IMG/VR virus record: IMGVR_UViG_2703718775_000013
Strand: one strand, 5' to 3'
DNA: 64,000 nt
Source: a virus
Taxonomy: Duplodnaviria; Heunggongvirae; Uroviricota; Caudoviricetes
The notes below the pieces were generated by a model, which was given only the letters and a program-made list of their open reading frames with translations, did not search any database and was not told where the DNA came from. Position 1 is the stretch's first letter. Each line of letters opens with the position of its first letter. Below, one piece after another: positions 2,488 to 45,087 of the stretch. Position numbers and translations under genes: made by a program.

Positions 2488-2645
2488 CCTCTCACTCCAT
2501 TATTTAACGAATAAAAAAGCTGCGGTGCCGGGTTCCTCCCGGTGTCCTTTGGCTGGTTATCCACCGTGGACGTGGAAACAAGGAGAAATAATGGACAGAT
2601 ATAACCATTTCCCCGCGTGCGCTTAGCCGCATTCACCGCAACGGA

Positions 2646-2705
2646 AAGAGCATTCTTGGTGGACCTGTAGATTGGGATATGAACCCGTTACAGGAGAATG
2701 CTCTT
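2646..2705. repeat. stem-loop element A (10-bp stem AAGAGCATTC/GAATGCTCTT, conserved loop core GTAGATTGGGATATGAACCCGTTAC)
   Basis: Inverted repeat read directly; loop core shared with element B, right arm shared with element C. Confidence 0.6.
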
Positions 2706-2903
2706 ACCTGTTACGTGCTCCGTTTCGTGGAGCTAACGGCGGGTGATCAGACCGCACCAGACTGGACTTATTTCAGCGTTATGCTCATGCCAGAGAATCA
2801 AACTGTGATGGTCGGTGCTGAACTCCGACACAGGGTTGTAGCAAGCCCCGCAAAGCGCGCACTACTGTAGTTGCGGCACATCAGCCTGTGCATTCACCAC
2901 AAT

Positions 2904-2985
2904 GTTGAGAACACTGGTTGTCACGCAGCAACGCAACATTTATTCGTAGATTGGGATATGACCCCGTTACGCCAGTGTTCTCAAC
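2904..2985. repeat. stem-loop element B (14-bp perfect stem GTTGAGAACACTGG/CCAGTGTTCTCAAC, same conserved loop core)
   Basis: Perfect inverted repeat; loop contains GTAGATTGGGATATGACCCCGTTAC, one substitution relative to element A; stem sequence entirely different from A yet still complementary. Confidence 0.6.
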
Positions 2986-3297
2986 GTTGTAGTTGTTATG
3001 CGTATTCTCTTACTAACCGCACACCAATACATTTCCCATCACGTTCATTTGTCTCGAAACGTGAATACTTAAGTTCGCCGTTAATAATCGCTGTTACAAC
3101 CCGTATCCCGTTAAACGCCCACATATTTCGCTCCATTTACACACATTACCAGTCGCCGGTTACGGTTCCGGCCAGGCCTCTTCCTCAACGGGGTGTTCTC
3201 CATACGGACTACCGTTTATTGGTCGTTCCTGCGGTTTATGTTGTGAAGCCAGATGCTTATCTTCTGGTTGCTTCTAAGATCTGCACTTCATCACAAC

Positions 3298-3352
3298 GGT
3301 AAGAGCACTCGATGCATTTAAGCCAGGCCCCATAAGGGAGAATGCTCTTACC
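3298..3352. repeat. stem-loop element C (13-bp stem GGTAAGAGCACTC/GAGAATGCTCTTACC, different loop)
   Basis: Right arm GAGAATGCTCTTACCTGTTA is identical to the right arm of element A (2694-2716); lies 9 nt from the 3' end of tRNA-Thr. Confidence 0.55.
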
Positions 3353-3360
3353 TGTTATGT

Positions 3361-3437
3361 TGGTGCCGATTAACGGGATCGAACCGCTGACCATTCGCTT
3401 ACAAAGCGACTGCTCTACCAACTGAGCTAAATCGGCA
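3361..3437 (-). tRNA. tRNA-Thr (anticodon UGU)
   Basis: Reverse complement TGCCGATTTAGCTCAGTTGGTAGAGCAGTCGCTTTGTAAGCGAATGGTCAGCGGTTCGATCCCGTTAATCGGCACCA; acceptor stem, T-loop GGTTCGATCC, anticodon loop TTTGTAA, encoded CCA. Confidence 0.75.
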
Positions 3438-3440
3438 ATG

Positions 3441-3527
3441 TGGTGGGGAGTGATGGAGTCGAACCACCCGAGTCGCAATGACAGTAGATTTACAGTCTAC
3501 CCCGCTACCCCTACGGACTAACTCCCC
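3441..3527 (-). tRNA. tRNA-Tyr (anticodon GUA), class II with long variable arm
   Basis: Reverse complement GGGGAGTTAGTCCGTAGGGGTAGCGGGGTAGACTGTAAATCTACTGTCATTGCGACTCGGGTGGTTCGACTCCATCACTCCCCACCA; anticodon stem GTAGA/TCTAC with loop CTGTAAA, long variable arm resembling E. coli tRNA-Tyr, 7-bp acceptor stem, CCA. Confidence 0.75.
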
Positions 3528-3532
3528 TAAAG

Positions 3533-3607
3533 TGGCGATGGTGGGTGGATTCGAACTACCGACCAGTTGGTTAACAGCCAACTGCTCTACCGCTGAGCTA
3601 CACCATC
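3533..3607 (-). tRNA. tRNA-Asn (anticodon GUU)
   Basis: Reverse complement GATGGTGTAGCTCAGCGGTAGAGCAGTTGGCTGTTAACCAACTGGTCGGTAGTTCGAATCCACCCACCATCGCCA; anticodon stem GTTGG/CCAAC with loop CTGTTAA, T-loop GGTTCGAATCC. Confidence 0.85.
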
Positions 3608-4272
3608 ACTTGCCGGGTACGTCTCCGGCGAGGGCTTCCACCTCCGTATGCTTTTCGGCGCACCGCGCCCTGGCTGCAATTCGGTAACAGGGGATGCATA
3701 ACCCTGGCTTCCAGCGTGATTAGCGCCTTCAGCATGACGGGATATACCCGTAAATTCGTGGAACTGTACCCAAAGTGCTGTTAAGCACCGCTGTTACGCT
3801 GAAAAGAAAACGCAACAGGAAAGGACGCTGACCAACAGATGGCCCCTTCTCGTTCATCTGGTTAATCACACCAGCGCCCTTACCTGTTGTGCCTCCCCGT
3901 TCCCTAATACACAGACGGGGACACTCTGCGGTCGATTTTTTGACGGGGGACGACTCATACCCCATGGCATCTGGCTTCTTAGGCCGCTACCATCATCAGA
4001 TCATCGTTTGCATTTACTTTAATGGTCAGTTTCTAAACCGCCGCAAAGTCGCTAACCATGACGAAAACCCTGAAAAAAACGCCCACCCGAAGATGGGCAA
4101 ACTGGACGCTCGTAACGCACTTCGGCGTTGCCACTTAGGCGCATGGTCAACCTGGCAACTCGGTGGTTTGTCTGGGAGGACTAGGCCCAGCCATGCTTAC
4201 CGCCGCGCCTGTCGCGGCTAACAGCTAAATCGCTCTATAAATCACGATTCATTGAGGTAATATTACACTAAT

Positions 4273-4289
4273 AAATTTATTAGAGCAAT
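4273..4289. promoter_or_regulatory. C1 repressor operator-like site (perfect match to reverse complement of ATTGCTCTAATAAATTT)
   Basis: AAATTTATTAGAGCAAT read directly; sits at the head of the minus-strand leader/tRNA/ban operon, analogous to the P1 ban-operon operator. Confidence 0.7.
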
Positions 4290-7200
4290 ATACCCAAAAC
4301 GTCATGAGCTACACCTCGAGTGTCCCCCTTACAAGACACAGAACGTCTGGCAAAAAGAGGTTCCACTCTGAAGCCACTGTCATGATAAAGCTCTCTGATG
4401 TTTGGCGCGCCACTGTTAGTAATGAGAACCTTTGCACCTCGACGATGAGCATCCGTCAACAGAGACACCAGGCGTTTTTGCTCTTCAAACTTAAAGTCAT
4501 GACCGGAATAGTTCGTGAATCCCTCTGTATTTGGAAGCGGTTCATACGGCGGATCGCAAAAGATGACATCTCCTTCTCCGGCAGCTTCAATCACCGCTGC
4601 AAAATCACCGCATACAAACTCAGACCGCCCTTCCGCACCGAGGAAGGCTTCCATCTCCTGTAATGGGAAATACGGAGTTTTATACTTCCCATAACCGACA
4701 TTGAACTCACCGGCCTGGTTGTAACGCGTCAATCCGTTAAAACAATGTCGGTTCAGGAACAAAAACGCCGCTGCGCGATGTAAATCATCATAGACTTGTT
4801 TGTTAAACGCATTCCGTACTGCCAGGTATCCTTCCTGTGTGTTGTAGTCCTGGAAGAAACGATGTGCCAGAGTGATAAGTGAATGCGCCTCGCGTTGCAG
4901 AGTCTTGTAAAAGTTAATCAGGTCAGCATTCACATCATTTAGCAGATTTTCCTGGTATCCGGCATTCATGAAGACAGCTCCGCCACCAACGAAAGGTTCA
5001 ATCAGGCGCTTCCCTTCTGGCAAATAGCGAAAGATTTGTTCCAGAACACCAAATTTTCCACCAGCCCATTTGAATATGGACCGTTCGAATTCTGCCGCTG
5101 GTTTAACTTTTCGCTCTTTTGTTTCACTTCCTTCTTTCTGCCGACATACGGCCTTAGTAATCCGATCGCCAATCCAGCGCATTACTGGTATTGCCATACT
5201 ATTGCCGATCGCTTTGTAACGCGGTCCGTCAGCTGCAAGCATTGCGGCCTCTTCTTCGCTTAAATCTGGATAGTGATTGTGCAGATATGCCAGTTCATCT
5301 GAATTAACTTTTTTACGCTTTTCCGTAGGGATCAACGTATGCCAATCAGGAAAACCTTGCAGCCTTTCACATTCGACAGGGGTAAGACGGCGCATTCTAC
5401 CGTCGCCGAGCAATACAATTGGTGCTTCATGGTTACATGTCAAAGTTGGTGCCGAATTATCGGTTTTTATCTCAGCCCCTCCTTGCCCATGTGCCATGGC
5501 AATTATGTTTGTATCATCGCAAGTTCTGATAGCGATGTTTGAAGTATATCTGGTAGTTTCCTTCCCCTCGCCTCTGCTCGGCGCAATATTCCGGCGCACG
5601 CCTTCGAACTCAAAAAGTACCGTTGCGGGATCGAGATCTGTTCGAGCACTTGCGACAACAAACACGCGTCGGCGTCGTTGTGCCACTCCGAAGTATTGGG
5701 CATCAAGGATTCTCCAGGCCACTTTTCGCTGCGGTCCATAAATACAACCACACTGCGGCCACTTTGGAACATGGCAACCGGTTTTGCCATCCCACCGCCA
5801 GAACGCGTTGCTTTTTCCTGATTCAGGTCGATCACCTGGTTCAAATGGCACATCTTCTCCAGCCAATCCGGCAAGGAAACATCCGAAGGCGTTATCTGCC
5901 GATGACAAGACTCCTGGGACATTTTCCCAGACGATAACGGCTGGTTTGAGAAATGACTCAGCCCGTTTGTCGTCAATTGCATTTGCAAGCTCCACATACT
6001 TTAAAGTTAGCGCGCCACGCTCATCATCAAGCCCACCACGTAATCCCGCGATACTGAATGCCTGACAGTTATGGACCACCGCACCATTGAGGATATAGGA
6101 ATGATCACCTTCGACTTCTATGTTGTATACAGTATCTAGGCCTACCGATTTAAACTCTTTGACTGTTCGTAAAAGCATTCCATGAGCCAATCTTGATTTA
6201 CGTGACAATTTCTGCGGGCAGATTGTTACCTGATAATAATTCCGTTGATTTACCACGCGATCCTCGATCACTTTTTTGGGCTCAACTTCAATAAAGCTGA
6301 CCGAAGAAACATAACCACAAGTCTGTGACAACCCCGCAACGCCCCAAGCAAGCGCAGAACTAACACTATTAATTCTAAATCCCGCTTTACCACTTGGTGT
6401 CCCATCAGTATCAAGATAGCCTTGTAAAAACACATGACGCAATGGATGCGACATCACCCATGCAGGGATACGCTTAGCATGGCTTAACTCGCCAAAATGT
6501 TCATTAAGCCAATTGGCATAACACGTATCATTCAAGGTTACTTTGATGCTCCCTCGGATTTCGCTTGCCACGGAAAATATGTTTTCTGGTATGCGGCAAT
6601 GAAACTTTCTCAATTTCTGGCAATTTATGCCAAAAACAACCGCCTTCTTAGATTTACCTCTCCATCTCCTAATATATCCATCGCCAACATAAGCGCCCGC
6701 AAGATACATAGCCTGTTCTTCAGACAAGAACCGAGAACAAATATCTGGAAATGCAATATTGAAATTAGTTAGAGCGCACCATTGATATCCCGGCATATCA
6801 CATGCTGCTCGCCATTCCGGTTCAGACAACAACTCTCTCTTAAAATATGTGCCATTTTTCCGGGTGTTTTGGGCTTTCCACCGAACAGCCAGGAAGGGAT
6901 GGTCATTGGTTGTTCTTATACCTAAAGGCTGCCCAACGGCATTAAGTAACCCCGTATTAGCTATTTTTGAACCAACTCTTTTTACTTGTTGTAACCGCCC
7001 GAGATGACTGACTACGTAATCACCAGGGCAAACATTTTCTATTGGTTTATAGCCATTTTTACAAAGAACCATATGCCCCGCGGTAAAACATGGTGTTCCC
7101 CCGACGAGCACGTCAGGGGATTCGATTTCCCCAGCCAAGACTTTTTTGGCAAGTTTTTTCATGTCGCCAAGGTTGGCAACATGGGGCCAGCGGAGCGCAA

Positions 7201-7321
7201 GAACGGCCGATGGAAAAGGCTCGATTTCAGCAAACCACGCCGGACGCATACCCAACGGTTCCCAGGCAATACTCGCGGCTTCAATTCCACTGCAAACAGA
7301 TCCATAGCACAGCTCTTTCAC
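4280..7321 (-). CDS. dmt: bifunctional DNA methyltransferase: N-terminal C5-cytosine MTase (interrupted by an intein) fused to C-terminal Dam-like N6-adenine MTase
   Basis: 1013-aa ORF. C5-MTase motifs: GGTP|...|CQAFSIAG (split motif IV), VIVWENVPG (ENV), QRRRRVF, GNSM. C-terminal domain has FxGxG-like EPFVGGGAV and DPPY. Start ATG overlaps rdgC stop (ATGA). Confidence 0.85.
6068..7090 (-). other. intein with LAGLIDADG homing-endonuclease domain (residues 78-418 of Dmt precursor)
   Basis: Starts with Cys (CFTAGHMVL, block A), block [11 protein letters not shown], two LAGLIDADG-type motifs [11 protein letters not shown] and [11 protein letters not shown]-terminal [21 protein letters not shown] followed by +1 Cys; excision rejoins GGTP + CQAFSIAG. 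Confidence 0.8.
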
Positions 7322-44725: not shown

Positions 44726-45087
44726 CACTATCAGCTATTGAGTTAATGGACCTCAGCGATAAGTTGGATGCTCTGATGTCCAAAGCGGCTACCGCGAGTG
44801 GCATGGAGTTGCTGGATATCAGCGATGAAATTGACCAGATCATGCAACAGATGGGGTACGGCGCGTCCGGCGGCAGTAGTGGCGAGGAAAAACAACCTTC
44901 GGTACATGATGGTGTGCCAAAACTGGTTGCTGATTTCCTGGCTGATAAATTCGTCGATCAGAGCACTGATGCATTTATCGGTACGTTACAGGACTTGAGT
45001 CAATATGTTGGCACATACATCGACCTGGACCAGGTTAAACAGCACACGGCGGCATGGATAGCCGCCAACATTAAAGAGGCAGCGTGA
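44722..45087 (+). CDS. ddrA: DdrA-like protein
   Basis: 121-aa ORF overlapping darA stop; synteny-based. Confidence 0.55.
   Translation: MTLSAIELMDLSDKLDALMSKAATASGMELLDISDEIDQIMQQMGYGASGGSSGEEKQPSVHDGVPKLVADFLADKFVDQSTDAFIGTLQDLSQYVGTYIDLDQVKQHTAAWIAANIKEAA

Follow-up and report, generated by a model that had tools for sequence, protein, structure and literature searches.

A constant-stem RNA hairpin family in the untranslated ban-operon leader of a P1-like phage

The window analyzed here, a stretch of 64,000 nucleotides (nt) from a virus of the Caudoviricetes (IMG/VR record IMGVR_UViG_2703718775_000013), derives from a P1-like phage which shares 99.2% identity with vB_EcoM-Ro157c2YLVW and about 95% with P1. 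On its minus strand, the C1-controlled ban operon begins with a long untranslated leader containing four paralogous copies, A, B, C and D, of one RNA hairpin family, which we name H1 and which is transcribed as part of this leader. H1 is a large, unannotated family of hairpins punctuating the untranslated leaders and transfer RNA (tRNA) clusters of P1, lambda and many enterobacterial phages. Considering their architecture and their position, these hairpins would best be understood as RNase III-type bracket processing stems which separate tRNAs, small RNAs (sRNAs) and messenger RNA (mRNA), a reading to which we assign a probability of roughly 0.55.

In the direction of transcription, the minus strand carries dmt, the Pban promoter with the C1 operator, a leader of about 650 nt, the genes for tRNA-Asn, tRNA-Tyr and tRNA-Thr (3607-3361), a non-coding tract (3360-2488) and an open reading frame (ORF) for a 78-amino acid (aa) membrane protein, followed by an SPFH lipoprotein gene, tRNA-Ile(CAT) and ban. 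An earlier first-pass annotation, which had only the letters and their ORFs to work with, had already placed the hairpins in the C1-controlled ban operon. The operator ATTGCTCTAATAAATTT (~4260-4291) and the annotation of P1, which puts Pban/Oban at this place, agree with that assignment.

Four copies of one hairpin

The H1 stem comprises about 21 base pairs (bp), with CACAAC-A-GG-U-AAGAGCAUUG as 5' arm and CAGUGCUCUU-U-CC-GUUGUG as 3' arm, and closes around a variable apical sequence, hereafter the cargo. It corresponds to about two turns of double-stranded RNA (dsRNA), with 19-22 pairs in 4/4 copies, one bulged A, one U.U mismatch and several G-U pairs. In copy A, the 5' arm CGUAAC-A-GG-U-AAGAGCAUUCU (2715-2695) pairs with the 3' arm AGAAUGCUCUU-U-CC-GUUGCG (2656-2637) around a cargo of 38 nt (2657-2694), which contains a 25-nt core and ends in ...GGUCCACCA. 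Copy B has a stem of 21/22 bp (CUACAACGUUGAGAACACUGG / CCAGUGUUCUCAACAUUGUGG) and a 54-nt cargo in which the same core (2946-2970; 96% identity to 2667-2691 in A) is accompanied by a second small hairpin. The stem of C, CAUAAC-A-GGUAAGAGCAUUC / GAGUGCUCUUACC-GUUGUG, encloses 29 nt and begins 1-2 nt past the 3' CCA of tRNA-Thr (3361-3436). Copy D, with compensated changes in its stem (CACAACAGGUAAGGGCGCUG / CAGCGUCCUUUCCUGUUGCG), is located upstream of the tRNAs, between the dicF-like/tag-like leader and tRNA-Asn; H1-D and H1-C bracket the tRNA-Asn/Tyr/Thr cluster (3361-3607).

The kinship of the copies is apparent from their sequences. A and C are joined by a 33-nt direct repeat (2684-2716 vs 3328-3360), the 5' flank TTCAYCRCAAYG is common to A, B and C, and the change from CGUAAC/GUUGCG in A to CAUAAC/GUUGUG in C preserves pairing, as do several compensated pairs in B and D. 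The corresponding inverted repeats lie at 2643-2656/2695-2708 (A), 2896-2917/2972-2993 (B) and 3298-3310/3340-3352 (C). The first-pass annotation had described three stem-loops, A to C, which are indeed present where it placed them, and had missed D (3811-3891). It was right about the loop core shared by A and B and about C, which reuses the stem of A and adjoins tRNA-Thr. Its stems of 10 and 14 bp have to be extended to about 21 bp once they are read as minus-strand RNA, with G-U pairs, the bulged A and the U.U mismatch, and the stems of A and B are not entirely different, as it had held, since B can be aligned with A and C without a shift and is set apart from them by 3-4 compensated pairs.

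Folding predictions favor the transcribed strand, with minimum free energies (MFE) of -35.4 kcal/mol on the minus strand against -31.3 on the plus strand for A (z -5.2), -47.1 against -38.7 for B (z -6.2) and -33.5 against -22.8 for C. D folds at -43.6 kcal/mol (z -5.5), and minus-strand z-scores for the H1 elements span -5.2 to -6.2. A covariance model (CM), R1, was built from 57 curated members, including the four window copies, to which it assigns E-values of 1e-16 to 5e-9 as members of its own training set. R1 gave no further match below E=0.1 in the 64 kb; on these values, a chance origin of the H1 copies can be excluded. A terminator scan called no intrinsic terminator at any copy: no U tract follows A, B or C, a U-rich stretch follows D only, and a run of six U follows only the closing stem of the domain downstream of A (D2-A, see below). 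No tRNA was called by ARAGORN or the Rfam tRNA model within 2488-3360. An Rfam match to mir-142 at 2886-3001(+) proved to be hairpin B read on the wrong strand.

Table 1. Features of the ban leader and of the tract downstream of it, in window coordinates.
Feature	Position	Strand	Sequence or module	Basis
H1-A	2637-2715	-		CM R1, 64.7 bits (- strand) vs 21.9 (+ strand)
H1-B	2897-2992	-		CM R1, 43.3 bits (- strand) vs 25.4 (+ strand)
H1-C	3292-3359	-		CM R1, 58.1 bits (- strand) vs 29.9 (+ strand)
H1-D	3811-3891	-		sequence; CM R1, 38.3 bits
D2-A, after H1-A	2513-2642	-	GUUGCGGUGAAU... several hairpins ...CCGGGAGGAACCCGG-CACCGCAGC, then U6 (2513-2518)
D2-B, domain after H1-B	2800-2905	-	GUGGUGAAUGCACAGGCUGAUGUGC...GUCGGAGUUCAGCACCGAC-CAUCACAG
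D2-C, hairpin after H1-C	3237-3292	-	GUUGUGAUGAAG...AACCAGAAGAUAAGCAUCUGG...CUUCACAAC
pre-H1 module 5' of A	2723-2791	-	small hairpins GGUGCGGUCUGAUCACC and GCUCC-ACGAAAC-GGAGC, adjoining the 5' arm
pre-H1 module	3155-3237	-	ends in hairpin GCCGG-AACCGUAA-CCGGC (3155-3172)
tRNA-Thr(TGT)	3361-3436	-		ARAGORN; Rfam tRNA (three tRNAs 42-70 bits)
tRNA-Tyr(GTA)	3441-3527	-		ARAGORN; Rfam tRNA (three tRNAs 42-70 bits)
tRNA-Asn(GTT)	3533-3607	-		ARAGORN; Rfam tRNA (three tRNAs 42-70 bits)
tmRNA-tag-like module	3979-4062	-	ten codons, ~80-90 nt upstream of H1-D
C1 operator and Pban promoter region, drives leader	4260-4291	-	ATTGCTCTAATAAATTT	sequence; P1ban/Obanab annotated at the homologous P1 position

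Selection on RNA structure

In the curated alignment of 57 members, 94.7% of cells are paired and 9/20 pairs have changed on both sides, all five measures exceeding those of 500/500 shuffles, with slid registers leaving 34-65% paired. Similarly, 95.0% of cells are paired among 107 distinct CM hits, where 15/19 pairs show double changes (96 cells); both percentages are inflated, the curated set having been seeded by a 3'-arm pattern and the hit set fitted to the model. One-sided changes are of the C-G to U-G and U-A to U-G type on the transcribed strand, which on the other strand would appear as A.C mismatches, and sense CM scores are about twice the antisense ones at every locus scored. The limitation of G-U changes to the transcribed strand and this two-fold gap indicate that selection acts on the transcript. 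The structure is under RNA-level selection on the minus strand, and the earlier proposal of selection on secondary structure can now be made specific to the RNA strand, with significant covariation.

The H1 family in other phages

BLAST searches revealed the tract to be a mosaic of short modules common to unrelated temperate phages, always in non-coding leaders and co-oriented with the genes. These modules occur in Klebsiella prophages (between a Q-like gene and the holin gene, 3' of tRNA-Gly), in phiNP (in a leader downstream of the repressor), in Salmonella phage Sasha, in the P22-like phage SPN9CC (directly upstream of the N gene) and in SSU5-like phage-plasmids. When the loci were read individually, the same hairpin arms were found to enclose different apical sequences. 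A search of IMG/VR with the 3'-arm pattern returned at least 120 contigs and, among the contigs listed, at least 96 distinct hairpins and at least 58 cargo clusters of 25-135 nt. The covariance model gave hundreds of matches in DNA of enterobacterial phages and prophages, among which cargo types number more than 50 and units form arrays of 2-5 per locus. Conservation in related phages, by which the first-pass annotation had proposed to judge the elements along with a covariance-model and comparative search, is thus what was found.

Full H1 members are present in about 27 species-representative genomes, mostly of Enterobacterales (Escherichia, Klebsiella, Citrobacter, Serratia, Pantoea, Erwinia, Kluyvera, Kosakonia and Rouxiella). 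A few H1-positive contigs from metagenome-assembled genomes and other sources bear non-enteric labels and are probably mis-binned. Among 37 genome-contig pattern matches, about six contain no H1 at E<=1e-4 and are likely due to chance, for which about 17 matches had been estimated for the pattern.

P1 itself has four H1 units, one of which, adjoining trnT, carries another cargo. Lambda has a single H1 (44,782-44,870; 63.9 bits), 7 nt past the 6S/tR' terminator, and many lambdoid copies directly follow the tR' terminator of the late promoter. Of the tRNAs within 600 nt of an H1, 47/48 are on the same strand, and 14 units adjoin a tRNA; among ORFs of at least 120 aa, the nearest one runs in the direction of H1 in 79/105 cases upstream and 75/110 downstream. 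No Rfam 15 family covers the hairpin in scans of the window and of the tested loci, a literature search with the arm sequences found nothing, and the site is unannotated in the lambda records examined. No convincing H1 was found in DLP12, Rac or Qin (best match 22.6 bits), which makes the published K-12 rnc data sets unusable as evidence on RNase III.

Close relatives differ from the window by whole cassettes. In P7 and D6, a tRNA-Ser cassette takes the place of 2660-2878; in CMS-2020a, B is joined to tRNA-Thr; and in Salmonella phage SJ46, A and B have been fused by a deletion between their 25-nt cores. The boundaries of the cassettes coincide with H1 elements. The interpretation offered by the first-pass annotation is supported in its outline but was unspecific, as it overlooked both a family extending across Enterobacterales, lambda included, and the location of its members exactly at the boundaries of exchangeable cassettes. 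The SJ46 fusion product (L009 1617-1705) is a hybrid of the B 5' arm and the A 3' arm, whose mismatched arms score 28.8 bits vs 43-65.

Modules flanking the hairpins

A small hairpin stands ahead of each H1, and behind it comes a second structured domain (D2) of the form GUGAAU..., hairpins, CACCACAAC. The 5' strand of D2 shares bases with the base of H1, and the H1 and D2 pairings are therefore alternatives. The closing stem of D2 is 9/9 paired in 73% of cases vs 25% in shuffles, which gives it moderate support; as shuffling alone lets its G/U-rich strand pair in 25% of cases, D2 is treated here as provisional.

D2-A lies directly 5' of the Shine-Dalgarno sequence of the 78-aa membrane ORF and folds at -50.4 kcal/mol (z -3.2); the 5' strand of its closing stem reaches into the base of H1-A, which makes the two pairings alternatives. 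From its sequence, D2-A is a candidate STnc100/PasD-like sRNA with terminator. It shares with STnc100 (RF02076) and PasD the GGUGAAU...CCGGGAGGNACCCGG-CACC architecture and the prophage context, and the domain is also found between dicF and dicB of Qin. Unlike STnc100, it has no separate terminal hairpin, and its match to the Rfam model covers only positions 31-147 of 206, at 38 bits (E=1.4e-5), below the gathering score of 47 and compared with 87 bits for a true member. The H1 hairpins themselves fall outside the STnc100 family.

D2-C has homologues in Sasha, in SPN9CC, directly 5' of the Shine-Dalgarno sequence of N, and in SSU5-like phage-plasmids. Alone it folds weakly (z -2.1), and the closing stems of the homologues are compensated (GUUGUGGUG/CACCACAAC and GAUGCGAUG/CAUCGCAUC). 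Its hairpin (3240-3275, minus strand) also holds CAACCAGAAGAU and CAUCUGGCUUC, which match a tRNA-Gly of a Klebsiella prophage (L005 2605-2679) and represent, in permuted order, the two halves of the anticodon arm and variable loop of that tRNA. D2-B is homologous to the commonest lambdoid type of D2 (GUGAAUGCGCAGGCUGAUGCGC...GCCGGAGAUCAGCACCGGCCACCACAAC).

Upstream of the hairpins, the module at 2723-2791 is 85% identical to a Klebsiella prophage module located 3' of tRNA-Gly, between a Q-like gene and the holin gene, and the module at 3155-3237 is 89% identical to a sequence of Citrobacter phage phiNP, where it is likewise 5' of an H1 unit. In P1, the latter module adjoins B directly, positions 2994-3154 being missing. 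These 161 nt, inserted between the pre-H1 hairpin and H1-B, hold a 46-aa minus-strand ORF (2996-3136) with a match to phrog_8025, which the Ro157c2 record lists as hypothetical; no Shine-Dalgarno sequence is obvious for this ORF, and there is no sequence variation on which its coding character could be judged.

RNase III-type processing as the likely function

RNase III-type processing is proposed on the basis of a two-turn bracketing helix which is repeated along an untranslated polycistronic leader and adjoins tRNAs. RNase III hairpins are expected to have about 20 bp or more, with small distortions tolerated, as is found in the H1 helix. The copies also lie where such hairpins would be looked for, in untranslated RNA, 3' of Pban/Oban and at the junctions of leader, tRNAs and first ORF. 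For the lambda late leader, folding predicts that H1 forms a long uninterrupted helix right after the tR' hairpin. Processing sites of such architecture are cut by RNase III in ribosomal RNA (rRNA) operons, the T7 early region and the lambda N leader. The lambda structure just 5' of the N Shine-Dalgarno sequence, an RNase III site, has its positional equivalent in the D2 hairpin of SPN9CC.

According to this proposal, the H1 helix would be a substrate of host RNase III, whose cleavage would cut the primary ban-leader transcript at defined points. The cut at D would part the dicF-like/tag-like leader from the tRNA cluster, the cut at C would free the 3' side of tRNA-Thr, and the cuts at A and B would release the cargo hairpins, leaving a downstream RNA that would start with D2 ahead of the first ORF. 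Processing sites and small RNAs within a non-coding tract were among the options named by the first-pass annotation, and these options stand, the ORFs of the tract having failed the coding tests described below.

The lambda H1, 7 nt after tR', has the same stem sequence as A and C of the window and similarly occupies an untranslated leader ahead of a first gene, the difference being that P1-like H1 forms an array of four, interleaved with tRNAs and carrying other cargos. Processing of the lambda late leader by RNase III is reportedly the subject, by its title, of a 1988 study by Daniels, Subbarao, Blattner and Lozeron (Virology 167:568; PMID 2849240). We infer that the sites of that study correspond to the lambda H1, a member of the family which was probably characterized at that time already. 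The title of Daniels et al. (1988), cited in a later article (PMC7547250), is the main support for the processing reading.

Like the bracket stems of rRNA and the T7 sites R0.3-R1.3, H1 is a helix of about 20 bp which flanks a functional RNA or lies between cistrons, has paralogous copies in one transcript, contains internal mismatches and punctuates a polycistronic RNA. It has no sequence similarity to them. The H1 stem keeps its sequence from one unrelated phage to the next and it is the RNA inside that changes, whereas an rRNA stem surrounds a single fixed product and the loops of the T7 sites are small. By analogy only, animal pri-miRNAs also offer a constant dsRNA handle to an RNase III-class enzyme, Drosha, with variable sequence and clustering in one precursor. 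They belong to a different kingdom and enzyme, H1 varies apically and not in its stem, and nothing in the present analysis points to a guide function.

Several observations weigh against RNase III-type processing. Beyond pairing, the stem sequence itself is strongly conserved across unrelated phages, which RNase III alone does not need; a partner with sequence specificity or a recent horizontal spread may lie behind this. Many cargos are long, up to 135 nt, and hairpins resembling the T-arm of tRNAs occur in 11/51 cargo types, against 0.05 expected from shuffles and 0 in reverse complements; together, this suggests a function of the cargo beyond that of a plain processing site. CRISPR interference knock-down across the P1 upl/plp region is tolerated (PMC10695390), and the H1 elements are hence dispensable in the laboratory; the A/B fusion of SJ46 implies likewise that a viable phage-plasmid can do with one hairpin fewer. 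The inflated pairing percentages mentioned above belong here as well.

Alternative readings

The alternative which survives best, although we consider it doubtful, regards the constant stem as a handle that would serve a protein or give protection from exonucleases, with active small RNAs as its variable cargos, among them tRNA T-arm mimics and the A/B core, which would act as decoys or regulators. It is compatible with cleavage by RNase III, which would then be a maturation step. More than 50 unrelated cargo types within one constant stem and the enrichment of T-arm-like hairpins just described speak for such a design. So does the A/B core ACGGGNNCAUAWCCCAAUC, which is found again in phiNP and in IMG/VR contigs, where the stems that close it differ but are compensated (CCUGUA/UACAGG, CGUA/UACG, GCGUG/CACGC). 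Hfq-bound sRNAs are moreover known from neighboring prophage regions (PMC4104026; Pas/STnc100 preprint). However, no cargo matches an Rfam family, many are short and show no obvious conserved structure, and free drift is what would be expected of the apical regions of processing hairpins.

The T-arm-like hairpins consist of a 4-5-bp stem and a UUCRANN loop, often adjoin an H1 arm and are strongly strand-specific; they were seen at loci L006, L015, L018, L026, L039, L065, L072, L079, L086, L091 and L125. The A/B core was itself tried as a tRNA T-arm (GGGUUCAUAUCCC) and rejected because of a U at position 58, a variable position 54 and a stem of only 3 bp; its loops, UUCAUAU and GUCAUAU, lack the A58 of the canonical UUCRANN and vary at position 54. 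Y RNA/YrlA, with a long terminal stem and a tRNA-like domain, was discarded for want of an Rfam match; E. coli is not known to have Ro/Rsr. GOLLD/ROOL, ribozymes, retron msr/msd RNA, C4 antisense RNA and put RNA gave no Rfam match at E<=1-5, and no reverse transcriptase was found near the hairpin tract. The anti-sRNAs AgvB and AsxR, which come from the same lambdoid "moron" region, had no Rfam match in the loci tested; they are primary transcripts of 51-60 nt with their own terminators (PMC4104026).

Compared with RNase III-type processing, the remaining readings are less likely. Distinctly unlikely, in our view, is a role at the level of transcription, either as an attenuator/antiterminator switch or through boxA-like recruitment of NusB/NusE which would shield the leader from Rho. 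In the first version, the base of H1 (CACAAC/GUUGUG) would compete with the closing stem of D2 (GUUGUGGUG/CACCACAAC). The two pairings do overlap, the global MFE structure closes D2-A at the cost of the basal 6 bp of H1-A, and the U6 tract (2513-2518) follows CACCGCAGC; against this, most D2 domains have no following U tract and the terminator scan did not call the site. The second version relies on a boxA-like UGCUCUUU/UGCUCUUAC in the 3' arm, where GCUCUUUAACAA-like sequences are found as UGCUCUUU in A and GCUCUUAC in C. These match the rrn boxA core and the lambda nutR form, respectively. These bases are paired within the helix and altered in B (UGUUCUCAAC), and the lambda H1 lies after tR', where antitermination comes from Q and not from Nus/boxA.

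More improbable still is that the arms, which behave as inverted repeats of about 20 bp, act purely as DNA, being recombination hot spots or the terminal inverted repeats of elements akin to miniature inverted-repeat transposable elements, which exchange cassettes without any RNA function. The cassettes differ between relatives and have their boundaries at the elements (the SJ46 A/B fusion, tRNA-Ser in P7 and D6, the junction of B with tRNA-Thr in CMS-2020a, the P1 cargo at C), and pieces of the tract are common to unrelated phages. However, G-U pairs confined to the transcribed strand, sense CM scores twice the antisense ones, the consistent orientation with flanking genes and tRNAs and the strand-specific enrichment of T-arms speak against this reading. 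No transposase or target-site duplication was seen, duplications not having been looked for systematically, and cassette shuffling is more simply a consequence of conserved repeats.

Lastly, the same DNA is annotated in P1, on the opposite strand, as upl and plp, here 2679-2870(+) with 63 aa and 2871-3302(+) with 143 aa and a TTG start. Both ORFs exist, although the first-pass annotation had seen no convincing ORF in these approximately 870 nt; its conclusion holds nonetheless, as neither shows a sign of coding. Across 32 distinct P1-like segments with 70 variable sites, changes by codon position number 2/10/9 in upl and 5/10/10 in plp, and synonymous to non-synonymous changes 7:14 in upl and 10:15 plus one stop in plp. 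In the 99%-identical Ro157c2, upl has lost its ATG to a deletion of 13 nt, a 1-nt deletion falls within plp, and both ORFs are deleted or replaced in SJ46, P7, D6 and CMS-2020a. From the codon-position, synonymous, indel and loss results, the tract is non-coding on the plus strand, and Upl and Plp are probably not real proteins. That the plus strand encodes them and the hairpins are incidental is very improbable: in favor stand the annotations in the P1, RCS47 and JL22 records and PHROG families for Upl, and on the other side, besides the missing coding signature, the broken frames and the losses, there is no Pfam match above cut-off for either, no PHROG for Plp, an overlap of plp with trnT in P1 and a P7 record that annotates neither.

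Other features of the leader and its neighborhood

The ban leader also contains a module resembling the tag-coding part of transfer-messenger RNA (tmRNA). It reads GCA AAC GAT GAT CTG ATG ATG GTA GCG GCC TAA, that is, ANDDLMMVAA*, the E. coli SsrA tag being ANDENYALAA; the frame begins at GCA with no in-frame start codon and its stop codon lies in a hairpin loop. Eight variants of the peptide (ANEEMYLAVA, ANDEQFLAVA, ANDNQYLAVA and others) were found at P1-like and lambdoid loci, each of ten codons and each followed, about 80-90 nt further on, by an H1 hairpin; the module is also present at L114 8380-8470, L106, L111, L010, L022 and L081. Rfam tmRNA matches to it are weak, ARAGORN called no tmRNA, no tRNA-like partner was found, and a literature search on the tag-like peptides found nothing. 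The A cargo, CGGGUUCAUAUCCC...GGUCCACCA, resembles the 3' end of E. coli tmRNA, CGGGUUCAACUCCC...GCUCCACCA. Taking this resemblance together with the tag-like module, one might speculate, although we regard it as rather unlikely, that H1 serves the temperate phages of enterobacteria universally as a maturation cassette, whose constant RNase III handle would excise dozens of cargo RNAs, including tRNA- and tmRNA-like minihelices, by which P1 and lambdoid phages would mimic, divert or re-program the tRNA and trans-translation machinery of the host.

The start of the leader (4064-4165) is homologous to the region 5' of dicF in the Qin dicB operon of E. coli K-12 (L132 2250-2600) and corresponds to the annotated "dicF-like region" of P1. 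The position of DicF is taken by a different terminator hairpin (4080-4099). In Qin, the D2/STnc100-like domain sits between dicF and dicB, and in phiNP a weak DicF match lies between two H1 units.

Around the hairpin tract, tRNA-Tyr (3441-3527) is additional to P1, sitting between tRNA-Asn and tRNA-Thr, and the SPFH/Band-7 lipoprotein and 78-aa membrane protein (1443-2487) are found where P1 has tciA/B/C. Upstream, the Dmt methyltransferase ORF (4280-7321, minus strand) encodes 1013 aa, about 250-260 aa more than P1 Dmt, the length of which was estimated from annotated coordinates. It contains an intein-like insert (Hint_2 and LAGLIDADG_3; CFTAGH...VVHNC) which interrupts the C5-methylase catalytic motif PC-QxFS.

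Implications

H1 belongs to a known kind of element, the phage RNase III-type leader hairpin. The family itself, the four-copy array around P1 tRNA genes and the design of a constant stem with variable cargo were not found in Rfam, in annotated records or in the literature searched. Few phages have been studied as closely as P1 and lambda, and even so the family lacks both an Rfam model and an annotation in the records examined. Its recognition corrects the upl/plp annotations and accounts for several hundred nt of uncharacterized non-coding leader around tRNA genes. The covariance model marks "moron" and leader regions in Enterobacterales prophages, and the constant-stem, variable-cargo design could serve as a ready scaffold for small-RNA expression. 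The tag-like module raises the separate question of phage tampering with trans-translation. For the phages themselves, H1 offers a testable model of how arrays of tRNAs and sRNAs may be cut from operon leaders.

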